Below, one piece after another: positions 34,163-38,456 of a DNA stretch of 44,074 nucleotides (position 1 is its first letter; each line of letters starts with the position of its first letter). A model generated the notes under the pieces. The model searched no databases. It saw only the letters and a list, made by a program, of their open reading frames with translations, and had not been told where the DNA came from. A program made the translations under genes and the position numbers. This DNA comes from a virus: UHGV virus genome UHGV-0043902; one strand, given 5' to 3'.

Positions 34163-34862
34163 TATCGCGATATTTATTCAGCTCCCGCAGCGCGGCACGG
34201 ACTCGCTCCCATTTCCGGATATCACTTTTCGCCCGACGCAGTTCGCGGTTTGCCTGTCGCAGCGATGGCAGAACCAGATTATCCACTCGCTTCTCAAGCG
34301 GCTGCACAATGTCCGCCACAGTTTCTGTTTTAATTTCTTCCTGTATTGCAGCCTCCTGTACTGGTAAAACAACACATGCAGGCTGAGGAAAGGCTTTACC
34401 ATCAGTTTCCGCTACCGATGCAGCTTTCGGCTCTGCTGGTAAATTACCGCCCGGCATGCAGTAACGAAATTTACCGTTCTGATTTACGCGAATCAGGCGT
34501 CCTTTGCTGATTGCCATTGCCAGCGTTGAAGCAACTTTGCGGGATGTTGTACCGAACAGCGTAGCCAGTTCATCCGCCGTTTGTGGTCCGCGTTGTTCAA
34601 TCGTCGCGGTTAAATCGCACTCTGAGATTTTCGCTACTGTCGCCGTGGTGGTTTCTTCCGGCTGTTCTTCTGGCGCTGGCTGTTCCTGCTGAACGTTGTT
34701 ATCAGCCACACGCCAGGTGTATACGCTTTTATCAACGAAGCCAGCCTTTTTCAGCTCCCACAGCTCGTTCAGTACTTCTTCACGACTGATATCAAGTCGC
34801 GCAGCCAGCTCTACCGACGTGGCTTTTCCCATCGCTTTCAGTGCGTCAAAAACAGTCTCCAT
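34119..34862 (-). CDS. Winged-helix/HTH-like protein, hypothetical
   Basis: 247 aa; N-terminal ..[29 protein letters not shown].. wHTH-like. Confidence 0.4.
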
Positions 34863-34894: not shown

Positions 34895-35560
34895 TCAAAC
34901 AAACCCAGCCGCTTTCCGGCGTTCATATTCCTGTTTCAGTAACTCAATTGGCGTTGGCCCCGACGGGCGTTTGGGTGCCGCCAGTTGTCGCCGGACTGGC
35001 GGAACGCTCAGGCCGTTACTAACATGCTTTGCCCATTTCGTCAGCTGCCGTTCTGCAAGCCGTTTTAATTCCCCTTCGGTCATCTGGCGCTCAATCCCCT
35101 TTGAACGCATCTCGAGGCAAATGTGATACAGCACAGGCTGAGACCACGGGTACTTATCACTTCCGTCGTATCGCCAGGACTCATTGCGCCAGCGGCGGTA
35201 CTCCTCCATCACAGCATCCACCGTCAGACCAAATGGATTTGCCCCACTCTCCGAAATCAGCGCCACAAACTCAGCCAGGTCCGGAGGCCATGTTTCACCC
35301 GCCCGGCAGCGGTCCATGCACTGGCGGCAGACCAGCCGGATTTGCTGCTCAGTCATCGCGCCAATCTGTGCAATCCAGAGCTTCGAAGGTGCGGCCCCGT
35401 TCTTCTGGGTCCAGCGGTTCGAATAAACCTCCCCCATGAGTTCCCACAGCTTCCACGCCGTTTCCGTCGCTGATAAATCCGTTTTCACGTTCCCACTGCT
35501 CACGTGCTGCCCGAATTTCCTGAACTGCCCGTGATGCGGTGCCACCTGGTGCGGCTGCAT
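34895..35560 (-). CDS. Replication protein P-like helicase loader
   Basis: 221 aa; architecture parallels lambda P (..[13 protein letters not shown].., ..[15 protein letters not shown].. versus lambda ..FLPSPGQFVAW.., ..YPWKSNAHYWLVTNL..); SD aagggggtgagccATG; the 5' end overlaps the O-like gene by 212 nt. Confidence 0.65.
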
Positions 35561-36473
35561 GGCTCACCCCCTTGCTGACTGGTTTAACCTGCGCCCTGAC
35601 GTGATTTACGTGACGGGCGAATTTCTGCTCCCACTGAACCTGCGTGAACACTTTGCCCTCCGCTGCCCAGTAGTCCCGGAAGGCGGCAAGTTCAGCTGGT
35701 GTAAATTCCGGCTCAGGAAGAGCCACGCCCCACAGCGCAGCCCGTCGTCGAAAATCCGGCGACGGATGCCAGCCATCGGTCATCGGAAATTTCCCGATGG
35801 GTTCGCTCAGGCCTTCCAGGTAATCAGGTTCCGCTGTCTGCAACGGCACGCCATTTGCCTCACTGGCCGGAGCACTCTCGCGCACGCGCGCGTTATGTGT
35901 GGGGTTTATATATCTGTTATCTGTTATCTGGATACCGCATGACAAAGCGTTAGCCTTATCCTTAGGCTTATCCTCAGGCAAAGGGATTGCCTTATCGAAT
36001 GCCATCCCCAAAGCCTCAGAAACCCCGTAGGACGCGGCTCTCAGCGATTCCCTGGCCTCCCATTTGAGAGGGCAATCAGGAATTAAAGCGAATGCCTTTG
36101 CCCAGGATTTAATGACATTTATCGAGTTTGGCGGATTGTGTTTCGCAGCATTCGGGAGCCAAAAAACTCTGGCTTTGATATCTGCTTTCACCATGCCAAG
36201 ATTCATGGCTTCGCCTAAGGCTAAGTCAAAGGCTTCGATATCCCACCCCAACTCTTCAGCCATTGCTGCCCGCCCGGCTTTAAATAACCCAGGAATAATC
36301 CCGGTAAATGGACTGGTCAGCAGATAAATAAACAAACTCTGTCCACTTGGAGGCAGAGGAGATAACGCCCTAAATTTGGGATCATCCCATATCGTTATTT
36401 TTACCTTGCGATAAGGCTCATTGTTTGCCTTAGTTTTTGGCATGGGATTTGGCATGTTTTTAGCCTTAACCAT
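35349..36473 (-). CDS. Replication initiator O-like protein (iteron-containing gene) with DnaT/primosomal-like C-terminal region
   Basis: ORF track 35349..36527 (TTG); ATG at 36473 with SD gaggcaattATG; iterons and AT-rich tract lie inside the gene as in lambda O. Confidence 0.6.
35903..35997. promoter_or_regulatory. Candidate replication origin: AT-rich tract with tctgttatc x2 followed by three GCYTTATCC iterons and a short palindrome
   Basis: gtttatatatctgttatctgttatctgg then agccttatcc / ggcttatcc / tgccttatcg at 35952, 35965 and 35988; located within the O-like coding sequence. Confidence 0.5.
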
Positions 36474-36552
36474 AATTGCCTCATCTGGTGTCGAACCTTC
36501 CTCCGGATATAATCTGTGATTCCCCAATCAACAGAACCAAAGGAGGTTCGAC

Positions 36553-37008
36553 ATGTCTTTAATGGCTGTTTGCCAAAAAATTAAAAATCACATGCGCACT
36601 GTGTACAAAATTAACCAGCACGATCACGACATGGTTAACCTGGTAACATGCAGGGCTATAGTTCTCACCCGCTTCCACCTGATTCTTACAAATCACTCAC
36701 GGGATTCTCTCCTGAGCCCCAGTAGCTATGATTCGCTGGCGAGATTGCTATACCAGGCAAGTGAAAAACGTATTACTGATCCCTTATCTGTTTCCCCTGT
36801 CCTTGCTCTTCACATTCTGGAAGACGCTCTCTATGACCCCCGTCAGGAATGCGACTATCAATTTCTTGAAGCTGAGAAATCAATGAGAGAATGGTTCGTT
36901 GAATATCGCGAACGGCAGCAAAAGTTACCCTCAGAGTATTCAGAACTTCCGCAACTTCGCTGGAGTGACCTTCCGAACGAATTATTTGCTCTGACCCCAG
37001 AAAATTAA
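36553..37008 (+). CDS. Hypothetical protein encoded antisense to the early-right operon (151 aa), unknown function
   Basis: Strong SD ccaaaggaggttcgacATG; a perfect TATAAT (-10) about 40 nt upstream; conflicts with the minus-strand ORF 36773..37186. Confidence 0.45.
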   Translation: MSLMAVCQKIKNHMRTVYKINQHDHDMVNLVTCRAIVLTRFHLILTNHSRDSLLSPSSYDSLARLLYQASEKRITDPLSVSPVLALHILEDALYDPRQECDYQFLEAEKSMREWFVEYRERQQKLPSEYSELPQLRWSDLPNELFALTPEN

Positions 37009-37186
37009 TTCTTGGGGATAAATCGTCCATAACTGAGCGCAGGCTAAGTTCTGCGCTCTGAAGCTTCCGAACCGAAGTTTCTGTACCCCAACCCGCAATT
37101 TCTGCATTTTTTGCAAGTTTCAGGATCCAGTCTCGTAGTTCGCCGGGAGTAAGATTTCCGGCATTTATGTACGGTTTGATTTTCAT
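36773..37186 (-). CDS. Hypothetical protein (137 aa) downstream of the ydaT-like gene; mutually exclusive or overlapping with the plus-strand ORF
   Basis: ORF track; begins 20 nt after the ydaT-like stop; weak SD. Confidence 0.3.
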   Translation of the reverse strand: MKIKPYINAGNLTPGELRDWILKLAKNAEIAGWGTETSVRKLQSAELSLRSVMDDLSPRINFLGSEQIIRSEGHSSEVAEVLNTLRVTFAAVRDIQRTILSLISQLQEIDSRIPDGGHRERLPECEEQGQGKQIRDQ

Positions 37187-37205
37187 TATTGGATACCCTA
37201 TTCAA

Positions 37206-37628
37206 TCAATGCACTACGACAGAATCGCCGGGCGACCCACCACCGCTGAAATGTGCTTTCCGGTAAACGGCCTGGACTGCATCATCATGCGCATCAATTG
37301 CCGTACTCAACGCTTCCTGCGCCGCCAGTAATGCACGGCGTTCCAGGGTATCGAAGATGCAGAGTCGGTGACGCAGCTCGCGCGGAAGAATTGCCAGAAC
37401 CGCAGGGATCAGTGTCTGAATTTTTTCCCTTTGCGCTTTCGTTTCACCTTTTAACCAACGGTGATAGATGTTCTGCTGATTATTCCAGTCCTTGCCTGGT
37501 ACCAGGGGCAATTCGCCGCCCCCCTGGCGCAGATATTCTTCAGTAATTGCATTGGCTACCCATGCCTGCCCTTTTTCAGCGGCCAGGGCTAACAGCACTG
37601 ATTCGATGTGCTCATGCCTGATTTTCAT
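37206..37628 (-). CDS. ydaT: YdaT-like protein (Rac-type cII-position protein)
   Basis: 140 aa; MKIRHEHIESVLLALAAEKGQAWVANAITEEYLRQ... resembles Rac YdaT from memory; SD caggagttgattcATG. Confidence 0.6.
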   Translation of the reverse strand: MKIRHEHIESVLLALAAEKGQAWVANAITEEYLRQGGGELPLVPGKDWNNQQNIYHRWLKGETKAQREKIQTLIPAVLAILPRELRHRLCIFDTLERRALLAAQEALSTAIDAHDDAVQAVYRKAHFSGGGSPGDSVVVH

Positions 37629-37887
37629 GAATCAACTCCTGTGCATTTTGTGTGTTAGCCTTACATCCAACAGGTAAACCATCGGTCGGATTCGGGTAGA
37701 TATCAGGCCGGAGTTCATGAGGTGTAACCTCGAAATTCGTTACTTCAGCAACACGTAATGCTTTTTCAGGGCTGAATCTTTCATAGCCCCCCAGTACTCG
37801 ACTTACATGCACCTGAGATAAACCCGTTAGCTTCCCAAACTGTAGCTGGGTGATATGTTTCTCTTTTAAATAGTCTCTTAAGTTCAT
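37612..37887 (-). CDS. ydaS: Cro-like HTH protein (YdaS family)
   Basis: ORF track 37612..37893 (TTG); ATG at 37887 with SD gaaggttggctATG; HTH ..QLQFGKLTGLSQVHVSRVL.. and ELRPDI motif. Confidence 0.6.
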   Translation of the reverse strand: MNLRDYLKEKHITQLQFGKLTGLSQVHVSRVLGGYERFSPEKALRVAEVTNFEVTPHELRPDIYPNPTDGLPVGCKANTQNAQELIHENQA

Positions 37888-37994: not shown

Positions 37995-38456
37995 ATGAAA
38001 AAAACACGCGAAGTGATTGCAACCCCAGAAGCGAGCAAGAATTTAAAAGCCGCATGGAATGCAAGAAAAAAAGAGCTGAAGCTGACTCAAGAGCTGGCGG
38101 CTGAGTTGTTGGGATTCGAATCTCAAGGCACCGTTAGCCAGTATCTGAACGGCAAGATACCGGTAAATACCGACGCTGCGCTAAAATTTGCGGCTCTGTT
38201 AAAGGTAAAACCAGAGGACATTCGAGAAGACCTTAAAGACTTAATGAATTACGTAAGATCATCAGATACTTATGATGATAGCTTTTCAGGCAAAGGATGG
38301 AGGCTGGTCAATGAAGAACAGGCAGAGTTACTTAACCTCTTCGAGATTCTACCTGCGTCAGAAAAAGCCAAACTCCTTAACCAGCTACGTGGACTAAACA
38401 AGCTCTACGAGGAAGCCTTCGAGAACATGCTGGCACTAAAGAAACGTAACCAGTAG
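37995..38456 (+). CDS. racR: Prophage repressor, RacR-like (XRE-family HTH)
   Basis: 153 aa; HTH ..LTQELAAELLGFESQGTVSQYLNGK..; divergent from the cro-like gene. Confidence 0.6.
   Translation: MKKTREVIATPEASKNLKAAWNARKKELKLTQELAAELLGFESQGTVSQYLNGKIPVNTDAALKFAALLKVKPEDIREDLKDLMNYVRSSDTYDDSFSGKGWRLVNEEQAELLNLFEILPASEKAKLLNQLRGLNKLYEEAFENMLALKKRNQ

Follow-up and report, generated by a model that had tools for sequence, protein, structure and literature searches.

There is still no agreement on long antiparallel dual coding in bacterial and phage genomes, and one locus of UHGV virus genome UHGV-0043902 raises the question directly: where two ORFs face each other between a ydaT-like gene and an O-like replication gene, is there one gene or two, and what would they do? 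For the window (the whole stretch of 44,074 nucleotides that was analysed), the original prediction had described a 151-aa plus-strand ORF lying antisense to the early-right operon and overlapping a minus-strand ORF by 236 nt, and had proposed that only one of the two is likely to be real. The ORF and the 236-nt overlap are both present (Table 1), but the choice between them falls away: both frames are conserved and open across deep divergence. Its conservation marks the plus ORF as a genuine gene, one that is absent from the RefSeq annotation. The region comprises, as comparison with its relatives shows, a two-gene cargo module of ~640 bp, not a gene and its shadow ORF.

Table 1. Genes and sequence elements of the locus, in window coordinates
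Feature	Position	Strand	Remarks
Plus gene	36553-37008	+	151 aa, ATG start
Minus gene	36773-37186	-	137 aa; early operon, after ydaT
Dual-coding core	36850-37005	both	plus codons 100-151 facing minus codons 60-111; ~156 nt
Unconstrained tail of minus ORF	36773-36849	-	codons 113-137 and stop, facing plus codons 74-99
Leader	36474-36552		~80 bp between divergent ATGs (replication gene 36473, plus gene 36553)
Conserved hairpin	36489-36553	- (operon RNA)	22 pairs, three helices
Putative -10 of plus gene	36508-36515	+	TATAAT at 36508-36513, overlapping family-conserved TAnnCT
Putative -35-like element CTGGTG	36485-36490	+	family consensus TTGGTG; 17-18 bp upstream of -10
Shine-Dalgarno sequence of plus gene, AAAGGAGG	36539-36546	+	
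Inverted repeat, left arm GTCGAACCT	36490-36498		
Inverted repeat, right arm AGGTTCGAC	36544-36552		
YdaT-box-like palindrome TGATT-N6-AATCA	36680-36695		inside plus ORF, codons 43-48; candidate regulatory site
Palindrome TGATT-N4-AATCA	36517-36530		leader; tip helix of hairpin
YdaT-family gene (cII analogue)	37206-37628	-	Pfam PF06254, E 9e-11; PGAP annotation
O-like replication initiator, DnaT domain	35349-36473	-	ATG 36473; GAGG Shine-Dalgarno 36479-36482

The plus protein is predicted to be soluble, mildly acidic and all-helical. Its 15 homologues at 49-99% identity are mostly exactly 151 aa long, full-length homologues of 150-157 aa are found at 25-58% identity, and the family comprises 23 clusters among 1.84 billion representatives. 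The C-terminal motif LPELxWxDLPxELF is invariant, including residues L132, W137, D139 and P141. The AF2 model of the plus protein is of low confidence (pLDDT 56), and the protein has no match in Pfam, NCBIfam, PHROG or PADLOC. Among 16 close haplotypes, none carries a premature stop, and the N:S ratio outside the overlap is ~1:1 or lower. A scan of species-representative genomes added one locus alone, in Trabulsiella, so the family is rare. We found no description of the plus gene, the gene pair or the slot that it occupies in the searchable literature.

The minus ORF corresponds to PGAP protein WP_040092190 and matches phrog_37051, a self-type PHROG of unknown function; it has no match in PADLOC, Pfam, NCBIfam or PDB families. 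Searching PDB sequences with profiles of either family gave nothing significant, and fold searches with the two proteins were uninformative. The minus protein is predicted to form a three-helix hairpin (helices 14-30, 35-64 and 74-112) followed by a disordered tail, with an AF2 pLDDT of 70.6 overall and <50 at residues 116-137. In particular, the confident helices stop at residue 112, the exact end of constraint. Codons 1-59 show coding-type periodicity (0.49/0.38/0.60 at the three positions), while variability in the tail is 0.64 at position 2 vs 0.24 at position 3, and the position of the stop shifts in two diverged loci (L007 and L039). The last ~25 codons clearly drift freely, and ~112 of the 137 residues prove functional by this measure. 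Strong Shine-Dalgarno sequences precede the minus start in the aligned diverged lineages.

In every lineage examined, both ORFs are homologous and intact, even in Salmonella, Serratia and viral contigs where identity falls to 28%, and the pair is always convergent with a 194-272-nt overlap (minus ORF intact in the diverged loci L007, L008, L010, L036-L041, L189-L199, L202 and L204). Both non-overlapping halves show coding periodicity, and in the overlap core variability is low at all three codon positions. Comparison across these lineages shows that the ~156 nt of the core code in both directions, with both frames open and under purifying selection among divergent relatives, as is characteristic of an overlapping gene pair.

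It is distinctly unlikely that the plus gene alone is fully functional and that the minus gene is an early gene of ~60 codons that reads on until it meets a stop. Such a gene would account for the unconstrained end of the minus ORF, and the plus protein leaves few possible sites for minus-frame stops, giving a chance of 0.08-0.35 per lineage that the frame stays open; in one locus (L011), the frame is open despite an unrelated N-terminal half. The joint probability, however, is 8.6e-8: opposite plus codons 101-151 the minus frame has 0 stops in all 9 of the 9 lineages, as against 1-7 stops opposite plus codons 1-73. Plus-gene synonymous sites are extra-conserved exactly there (synonymous-codon identity of 0.68 in the core vs 0.41-0.45 elsewhere), although this extra constraint could stem partly from RNA-level selection. 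The minus protein itself shows protein-like conservation in the overlap (I..YL.S..I.RS.D...E.L..L) down to 24% identity, and its most confident AF2 helices (pLDDT >90) sit there. The converse, that the minus ORF alone is real, as in RefSeq, and the plus ORF is a chance shadow with a fortuitous Shine-Dalgarno sequence, agrees with PGAP, which annotates the minus ORF and omits the plus ORF in E. coli genomes, but is highly improbable and already contradicted by the comparative data: ORF length and the invariant motif are retained down to 25% identity, position 3 is the most variable throughout, the chance of an open plus frame given the minus protein is 0.003-0.05 per lineage (product 2.3e-21), the Shine-Dalgarno sequence and ATG are invariant in 44 leaders, gene callers picked the plus ORF in most diverged loci, and no plus-frame stops, which the original prediction had named among the observations that would count against the ORF, were found in natural relatives.

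Annotation pipelines drop one gene each time: in E. coli, PGAP leaves out the plus gene; elsewhere, other callers leave out the minus gene. GenBank record PP818812 annotates both. The locus is a clean example, backed by comparative genomics, of two conserved proteins read from the two strands of one ~156-nt stretch, a situation maintained from E. coli to Serratia. The antisense overlapping genes of EHEC (asa, PMC6294744; olo, PMC9927249) are alike in their long antiparallel coding overlap, which annotation pipelines disallow. However, most of the EHEC cases are young ORFs, restricted to a lineage and lying within an older gene, whereas here both partners are conserved together to 24-28% identity, each with a non-overlapping half. 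Comparison of the loci shows that, in lambdoid and P2/186-like prophages of Enterobacteriaceae, the two genes are passed on together as one unit. The mutual dependence is not absolute, since L011 retains the plus gene with a minus ORF that is chimeric, and two loci (L200 and L201) retain the minus gene with a truncated plus ORF.

The leader upstream of the plus gene aligns across different cargo types. Of 5426 complete E. coli genomes, 582 (>10%) carry it at 92-100% identity; the two-gene module is present in 24. The Shine-Dalgarno core RAGGAGG is invariant in all leaders. As predicted, the plus gene is preceded by AAAGGAGG, at a spacing of 6 nt (TTCGAC) instead of the 7 nt given, and by a TATAAT, which ends 39 nt ahead of the ATG where ~40 nt had been stated. 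The TA of the -10 is invariant and lies in an unpaired part of the hairpin (29 leaders), and a conserved TGGTG block lies outside the hairpin helices. A consensus promoter scan makes no call on this promoter, the -35 being weak; the two conserved elements together are a putative plus-gene promoter. A second promoter-like sequence, TTGGCA-16-CATAAT (36449-36476), lies within the O-like coding sequence and is absent where another replication gene flanks the leader, and was rejected as a conserved promoter; its use would put the entire hairpin into the plus 5' UTR. The O-like ORF taken here is the long form, as annotated in PP818812; the alignment to phrog_1408 begins at its residue 38.

The inverted repeat described around the Shine-Dalgarno sequence exists, as part of the longer 22-pair hairpin. 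Folding of the 85-nt leader gives z-scores of -4.3 for the plus and -4.65 for the minus strand, and 0 of 200 shuffles fold as well. RNAalifold gives the three-helix consensus structure, with a covariation score reached by 0 of 500 shuffles. In 42 of the 44 distinct leaders the minus RNA has the more stable fold (mean ddG -6.5 kcal/mol), and 94.7% of cells are paired on the minus RNA, with 89 G-U pairs, as compared to 82.3% with 10 G-U pairs on the plus RNA. The 89 minus-RNA G-U pairs would be C-A mismatches on the plus RNA. The G-U pattern shows that the hairpin folds on the operon RNA, where it adjoins the replication-gene Shine-Dalgarno sequence on its 5' side; because the family-conserved -10 sits between the arms, the left arm would lie outside the plus mRNA. 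On these two observations we reject the proposed sequestration of the plus-gene Shine-Dalgarno sequence on the plus mRNA. Rfam has no family for the leader hairpin or for anything else nearby. On the opposite transcript, ahead of the replication genes, the leader also forms a conserved RNA hairpin, a candidate for an unstudied control element of the early operon.

The same leader precedes at least 11 unrelated cargo families, including PD-Lambda-6 and ECs1072, and for this reason we regard the slot as a cargo hot spot. Alignment of the loci shows that the hot spot lies between the cro/cII-analogue genes and the replication genes, is framed by the ~80-bp leader, and that, on its plus strand, the leader equips any cargo with promoter-like -35 and -10 elements, a strong Shine-Dalgarno sequence and an ATG. 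The slot is thereby defined in Rac-like and lambdoid prophages, with a portable ~80-bp socket of putative promoter, ribosome-binding site and ATG. Like a moron, the module is patchy among related prophages, is replaced by other cargo and is atypical in composition, with a GC content of 45% vs 53% in its neighbours. The P2/P4 defence hot spots (PMC9122126, PMC9519451) likewise combine a fixed site and conserved flanks with many small unrelated cargo genes, some of them validated defences. The present slot differs in belonging to another phage group, in lying antisense inside an early lytic operon and in the conserved promoter/RBS/ATG cassette that its cargo shares.

PD-Lambda-6 is a single-gene anti-phage system from the functional selection of Vassallo et al. 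2022 (PMC9519451; PADLOC PDLC04020). Other E. coli prophages (strain 317; PDLC04020, E 9e-90) and IMG/VR contigs carry it in this very slot, downstream of the leader described here. Like the plus gene, it is small, prophage-borne and served by a promoter of its own, putative in the case of the plus gene. The two are not homologous: neither protein of the pair has a PADLOC match, and hhalign gives a probability of 0.09%. Moreover, PD-Lambda-6 has an N-terminal hydrophobic segment, in contrast to the soluble plus protein, and there is no overlap between it and its convergent minus-strand neighbour of 73 aa. The superinfection-exclusion or defence role suggested for a gene at this position gains indirect support from PD-Lambda-6, and would extend to the plus gene by association with this one validated neighbour. 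A BssS-like gene is found in the slot too, so a defensive role need not apply to all cargo. With one validated defence gene and at least 10 uncharacterised cargo families, the slot offers a list of candidates for anti-phage and lysogenic-conversion functions.

The ECs1072 family (NCBIfam NF033230), uncharacterised and found in O157 prophages of the CP-933P/Sakai type, lies in the same slot between ydaT and the replication gene. ECs1072 is on the same strand as the plus gene and has the same length of 151 aa, and its leader is 92.6% identical over 81 nt. It also faces an unannotated convergent minus ORF, with an overlap of ~317 nt, and the N-terminus of that ORF resembles the present minus family (hhalign E 2.4e-4, probability 43%). 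The plus protein itself is not recognised as an ECs1072 homologue, with no HMM match at E <= 0.1 (curated cut-off 70 bits; a true ECs1072 protein scores 105.7 bits) and an hhalign probability of 0.1%. A 97-aa cargo type has a long convergent overlap too.

Our best explanation of the whole, to which we assign a probability of about 0.5, is a two-gene module in which a lysogen-expressed plus gene and an early-lytic partner are expressed reciprocally. In a lysogen, the early operon would be repressed, so the plus gene alone would be transcribed, from its own promoter. For ECs1072, in the same slot, expression is detectable in uninduced O157 Sakai and varies under growth-phase regulation (PMC2241611). 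The plus gene would belong to the accessory genes of the prophage and, like PD-Lambda-6, would most probably be an anti-phage or superinfection-exclusion factor. Upon induction or infection, transcription from a pR-like promoter would cross the minus gene head-on into the plus gene, and polymerase collision together with pairing of the long complementary RNAs would silence the plus gene during synthesis of the minus protein. The latter would serve as the phage's own partner to the plus protein in the early phase, whether as an antagonist conferring self-immunity or as a co-factor, and the overlap would hard-wire co-inheritance and reciprocal expression of the two genes.

Prophage defences with built-in self-immunity are represented by BstA/aba (10.1101/2020.07.13.199331) and Tha/Ith (PMC11087260). 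By analogy, they would follow the same proposed logic, in which a lysogen-expressed defence factor is neutralised at lytic entry of the prophage by an element in or next to the gene. Neither is related in sequence to the present pair, and self-immunity in those systems is provided by a DNA element or a separate lytic-phase inhibitor, not by an overlapping antisense gene. A stronger version of the two-gene reading, which we put forward only tentatively, is that the obligatory antisense pair acts as a lysogen/lytic toggle, in which the plus protein would be an anti-phage effector produced solely while the prophage is silent, the minus protein would be the antidote or switch partner produced solely when the early operon fires, and the doubly coding ~150-270 bp would keep the two states exclusive and the two genes inseparable. 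If so, the ECs1072 and 97-aa cargo types would be further overlapped two-gene defence/self-immunity cassettes, and such cassettes would form an unrecognised class plugged into a common promoter-hairpin socket.

In phage lambda, the p_o promoter gives rise to oop, a 77-nt non-coding antisense RNA transcribed against the pR operon from between the cII-position and replication genes and covering the 3' end of the upstream, cII-position gene. A doubtful but possible reading on this model is a lysis-lysogeny control module, in which the minus protein is an early regulator and the plus transcript is mainly an oop-like antisense RNA that lowers minus-gene expression and codes for protein incidentally. 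The placement is consistent with this reading: the putative plus promoter is positioned as p_o is, the plus RNA would cover the 3' end of the upstream gene, the minus gene follows cro directly, at the cII position, in loci lacking ydaT, and the plus ORF contains an exact YdaT box. However, the plus transcript is neither a short non-coding RNA nor one with an intrinsic terminator in the cII-position gene. The single plus-strand terminator-like site, at 37142-37162, is not conserved. Unlike oop, the transcript encodes a conserved 151-aa protein and overlaps another conserved coding sequence; the strong conservation of that protein, including its invariant C-terminal motif, indicates that the transcript is not just RNA. 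The minus protein, moreover, is modelled with long coiled helices and no helix-turn-helix, the YdaT cII analogue is already in the window, and the module is dispensable and swappable among similar prophages, which would be unusual for a core decision gene.

It is quite unlikely that the pair is a toxin-antitoxin or addiction module that stabilises the prophage, in which the toxicity of one protein is neutralised by its partner or by the antisense RNA. Two strictly co-inherited small genes with long antisense complementarity, as in type I systems, would suit such a module, and the locus adjoins immunity regions, where toxin-antitoxin systems of the paaR2-paaA2-parE2 type occur (PMC8630535). Neither protein, however, is significantly similar to any toxin-antitoxin family, neither has the small size and hydrophobicity of type I toxins (GRAVY -0.44 and -0.47), and the convergent gene order is unlike that of type II systems, which are co-directional and co-transcribed.

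YdaT-box-like palindromes occur four times in the window vs 0.52 expected, all spacings counted. One TGATT-N6-AATCA spans the ydaT ATG (37619-37634); a YdaT box covering the ydaT ATG has been published for Rac and CP-933P (PMC11879457, PMC9986795). The palindrome inside the plus ORF, present in most close copies and missing in L033 and L034, is a candidate operator of the TTGATT-N6-AATCAA type to which YdaT binds. The leader palindrome has an N4 spacing unlike that of the published N6 box and forms helix 3 of the hairpin, which explains it at least partly.

The two overlapping ORFs of the window, a 151-aa ORF on the plus strand and a 137-aa ORF on the minus strand, are with a probability of about 0.9 both real genes, functionally overlapping and carried as hot-spot cargo. 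The window represents an E. coli prophage, Rac-like and lambdoid, to which E. coli M8 (NZ_CP019953) is 100% identical across the region. The plus ORF lies where the original prediction placed it, as do the TATAAT element, the inverted repeat, and the 236-nt overlap with the minus ORF; the Shine–Dalgarno (SD) sequence AAAGGAGG is present too, 6 nt rather than the predicted 7 nt from the ATG. PGAP annotates the minus ORF alone and leaves 36263–36773 blank; the sole record seen with both ORFs annotated is GenBank PP818812 ("Actinobacillus phage vB_Apl-pPE4"), which is 99–100% identical to the E. coli prophage over the two ORFs and their neighbours, and for which Actinobacillus looks doubtful as host. 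PGAP starts the O-like gene at 36263, and the ORF runs on to an ATG at 36473, preceded at 5 nt by a GAGG SD; residue 38 of this long form, which PP818812 also annotates, is where the alignment to the PHROG replication-initiator profile begins. The RefSeq start is probably ~70 codons too short, thus creating a false 510-bp "intergenic" gap.

Table. Features of the early-right operon and of the cargo module (window coordinates)
Feature	Position	Strand	Remark
Divergent repressor gene	37995-38456		
Cro/YdaS-like gene	37893-37612	-	early-right operon
YdaT-family gene	37628-37206	-	early-right operon; cII analogue
137-aa minus ORF	37186-36773	-	early-right operon
O-like replication gene	from 36473	-	early-right operon; DnaT domain
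P-like gene		-	early-right operon
Plus ORF	36553-37008	+	151 aa
SD of plus ORF	36539-36546	+	
TATAAT	36508-36513		
Inverted-repeat arms	36490-36498 / 36544-36552		
Putative dual-coding segment	36850-37005		
Terminator-like hairpin	37142-37162	+	
Palindrome 1	37619-37634		spans ydaT start codon
Palindrome 2	36680-36695		within plus ORF
Palindrome 3	34480-34495		within DUF1627 gene

Conservation indicates that both ORFs are genes, contrary to the earlier view that probably only one is real. In particular, a search of 5.8 billion proteins returned 15 relatives of the plus protein, most of them exactly 151 aa and including full-length members in Salmonella and Serratia (49–58% identity), and exhaustive profile searching across 1.84 billion representatives yielded 23 clusters, mostly of 148–162 aa. 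L132, W137, D139, and P141, all in the C-terminal motif LPELxWxDLPxELF, are invariant in the family at 23–36% identity; codon position 3 is the most variable along the entire ORF; and no family match was obtained in any of the libraries searched. The minus frame was expected to be broken in diverged loci; it is instead intact and homologous (~125–148 aa) in nearly every lineage read, with a convergent overlap of 194–272 nt. Intact minus ORFs are kept in Salmonella (loci L007 and L010), Serratia (L008 and L009), IMG/VR and metagenome contigs (L036–L041), and remote relatives (L189–L199) whose plus proteins are just 28–33% identical. The contexts vary, with or without ydaT and with different replication genes, one locus being a Cox/Ash/integrase P2/186-type element. 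Where gene callers took the minus gene instead (P0043 and P0045), the opposite strand carries the plus ORF without a call. The exceptions are a chimeric minus ORF (L011), a shorter one of 110 aa (L039), and N-terminally truncated plus ORFs (L200 and L201). In L011 (Trabulsiella guamensis, 1505–2303) the plus gene is intact, the minus ORF before the overlap is unrelated sequence, and the recombination breakpoint falls exactly at the plus stop codon, with the minus frame still open across the overlap. UniRef labels the minus-family member P0043 "Chemotaxis protein CheZ"; the label has no support in a Pfam search and is probably spurious, arising from helical-hairpin similarity.

Within the overlap, position 1 of plus codons faces position 1 of minus codons, plus position 2 faces minus position 3, and plus position 3 faces minus position 2, which is the most constraining arrangement. 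Outside it, variability by codon position shows coding periodicity in both genes (0.40/0.29/0.52 for plus codons 1–73; 0.49/0.38/0.60 for minus codons 1–59). Plus codons 74–99 have a pure plus pattern (position 3, 0.65), so that the opposing minus codons 112–137 are most variable at position 2 (0.64) and hence escape selection at the protein level; plus codons 100–125 and 126–151 are quiet at all positions (0.28/0.32/0.38 and 0.21/0.19/0.29). Same-amino-acid pairs use the identical codon in 45%, 41%, and 68% of cases in plus codons 1–73, 74–99, and 100–151, respectively, and minus-frame stops number 1–7 per lineage opposite plus codons 1–73 and 0 in 101–151 (nine lineages). With synonymous codons chosen at random for each plus protein, an open minus frame has a chance of 0.08–0.35 per lineage (product 8.6e-8), and an open plus frame given the minus protein one of 0.003–0.05 (product 2.3e-21); both products treat lineages as independent and overstate significance, the direction being unambiguous. 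AlphaFold2 predicts three helices in the minus protein (14–30, 35–64, and 74–112; pLDDT >90 within the overlap) and a tail disordered from residue 116, the same helix/tail boundary as in the evolutionary analysis. Stops accumulating in the plus frame of related prophages had been proposed as the pattern that would speak against the plus gene; among 16 close haplotypes neither frame has a premature stop, and nonsynonymous:synonymous changes in the two non-overlap halves are 7:7 and 5:8. Together, the codon-position, synonymous, stop, structural, and haplotype results argue that ~156 nt code in both directions, the free-running tail of the minus ORF being limited to its last ~25 codons.

The ~80-bp leader between the replication-gene ATG and the plus-gene ATG folds far better than shuffles (z = -4.3 and -4.65 on the two strands). 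The 44 distinct leaders have in common the invariant RAGGAGGTTCGACATG, a TA..CT hexamer (TATAAT/TAATCT in the window), and, 17–18 bp upstream of the hexamer, a TGGTG block; the hexamer and block lie outside the leader hairpin or in its unpaired parts, and most plausibly represent the -10 and weak -35 of a putative cargo promoter. This 22-pair, three-helix hairpin has the inverted repeat at its base, and its deviations from Watson–Crick pairing are strand-specific: 94.7% of cells are paired, with 89 G-U, as minus-strand RNA, versus 82.3%, with 10 G-U and 113 mismatches, as plus-strand RNA. The minus-RNA fold is more stable in 42/44 leaders, and covariation is higher than in any of 500 shuffles or any slid control. 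Pairing and G-U bias, stability, and covariation thus point to selection of the hairpin on the operon transcript. Sequestration of the plus-gene SD by the repeat, as originally proposed, finds no support, since the putative -10 sits between the arms and the plus mRNA would be made without the left arm. The hairpin ends 6 nt before the GAGG SD of the replication gene, lacks a U-tract, matches nothing in Rfam, and could, as guesses, be an RNase III site, a 5′-end stabiliser, or an uncoupler from the sense/antisense duplex.

Between ydaT and the replication genes lies a hot spot for cargo, whose constant socket consists of a putative promoter, a ribosome-binding site, and an ATG. The leader (first 81 nt of the query) matches 582 of 5426 complete E. 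coli genomes, and the module itself is in 24. In other prophages the cargo following this leader is an 83-aa gene, a member of the ECs1072 family (NF033230, 151 aa), or a homologue of PD-Lambda-6 (PADLOC E 9e-90). Scanning IMG/VR with GAACCNRAGGAGGTTCGACATG gave at least 120 loci; the cargo among the matches listed was ECs1072 (at least 28), the plus-gene family (at least 26), a 97-aa family (at least 24), the 83-aa family (at least 12), PD-Lambda-6, a BssS-like gene, and a 78-aa family (at least 3 each), and others (at least 18). Module GC is 45%, versus 53% in the neighbours. Vassallo et al. (PMC9519451) obtained PD-Lambda-6 by functional selection; their paper names lambdoid prophages as a source without describing the slot, and studies of CP-933P/Rac immunity regions place ydaS and ydaT alone between repressor and replication genes (PMC8630535, PMC9986795, PMC11879457). 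The only literature found on ECs1072 is a microarray table, which shows its expression, with growth-phase regulation, in Sakai without induction (PMC2241611).

Sequence comparison places neither protein in any TA family or with ECs1072 or PD-Lambda-6. The ECs1072 module is a sibling by position and architecture: in the CP-933P-type prophage of E. coli E2865 (L004, 3212–3724), an unannotated ~170-aa minus-strand ORF begins right after ydaT, overlaps the ECs1072 gene by ~317 nt, and has an N-terminus, GGLSDVELAEWL, weakly matching the window's minus family (hhalign E 2.4e-4). Elsewhere, PD-Lambda-6 cargo (L006, 3474–3695) faces a convergent, hydrophobic 73-aa minus ORF; the 83-aa plus gene and a 98-aa minus gene of EC11 (L005, 3074–3622) adjoin stop to stop; and the 97-aa family at IMG/VR loci has a convergent ORF too (~273-nt overlap). 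As kinds, antisense overlapping genes and hot-spot cargo of prophages are both known. What appears undescribed is their combination here: two convergent genes, deeply conserved and doubly coding, joined to a bifunctional socket of putative promoter and hairpin within an early operon.

In a lysogen, with the early promoter repressed, the plus gene would be expressible from its own putative promoter, as expected of hot-spot cargo. Upon firing of the early operon, transcription through the minus gene would collide head-on with plus transcription, and the two RNAs would be complementary across the whole module, which together should silence the plus gene during minus-protein production. That the genes are strictly co-inherited, and keep their overlap in the phase that constrains most, suggests that each product acts on the other or that both work on one process. 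The main rival is that the pair are lysis–lysogeny regulators, and the minus gene does occupy the cII position at loci without ydaT. We infer, tentatively, that the plus product may be a lysogen-phase accessory or defence protein and the minus product its early-lytic partner or antidote; the logic would be analogous to BstA and Tha self-immunity, and the topology to lambda oop/cII and convergent-promoter switches. This defence/antidote assignment is itself rather doubtful; for the account as a whole, both genes and hot spot included, we put the odds at even.

A terminator-like hairpin (GCCGGGAGTAAGATTTCCGGC, then a T-rich tail) within the first minus-ORF codons, 134 nt beyond the plus stop, may be where the plus transcript of this lineage stops; it is not conserved among diverged lineages. 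The window also contains three exact TGATT-N6-AATCA palindromes of the YdaT-box type (Table), that over the ydaT start codon being published for Rac (PMC11879457, PMC9986795). With all spacings (N3–8), there are 4 matches versus 0.52 expected, which suggests that the cargo gene may be a target of YdaT too.
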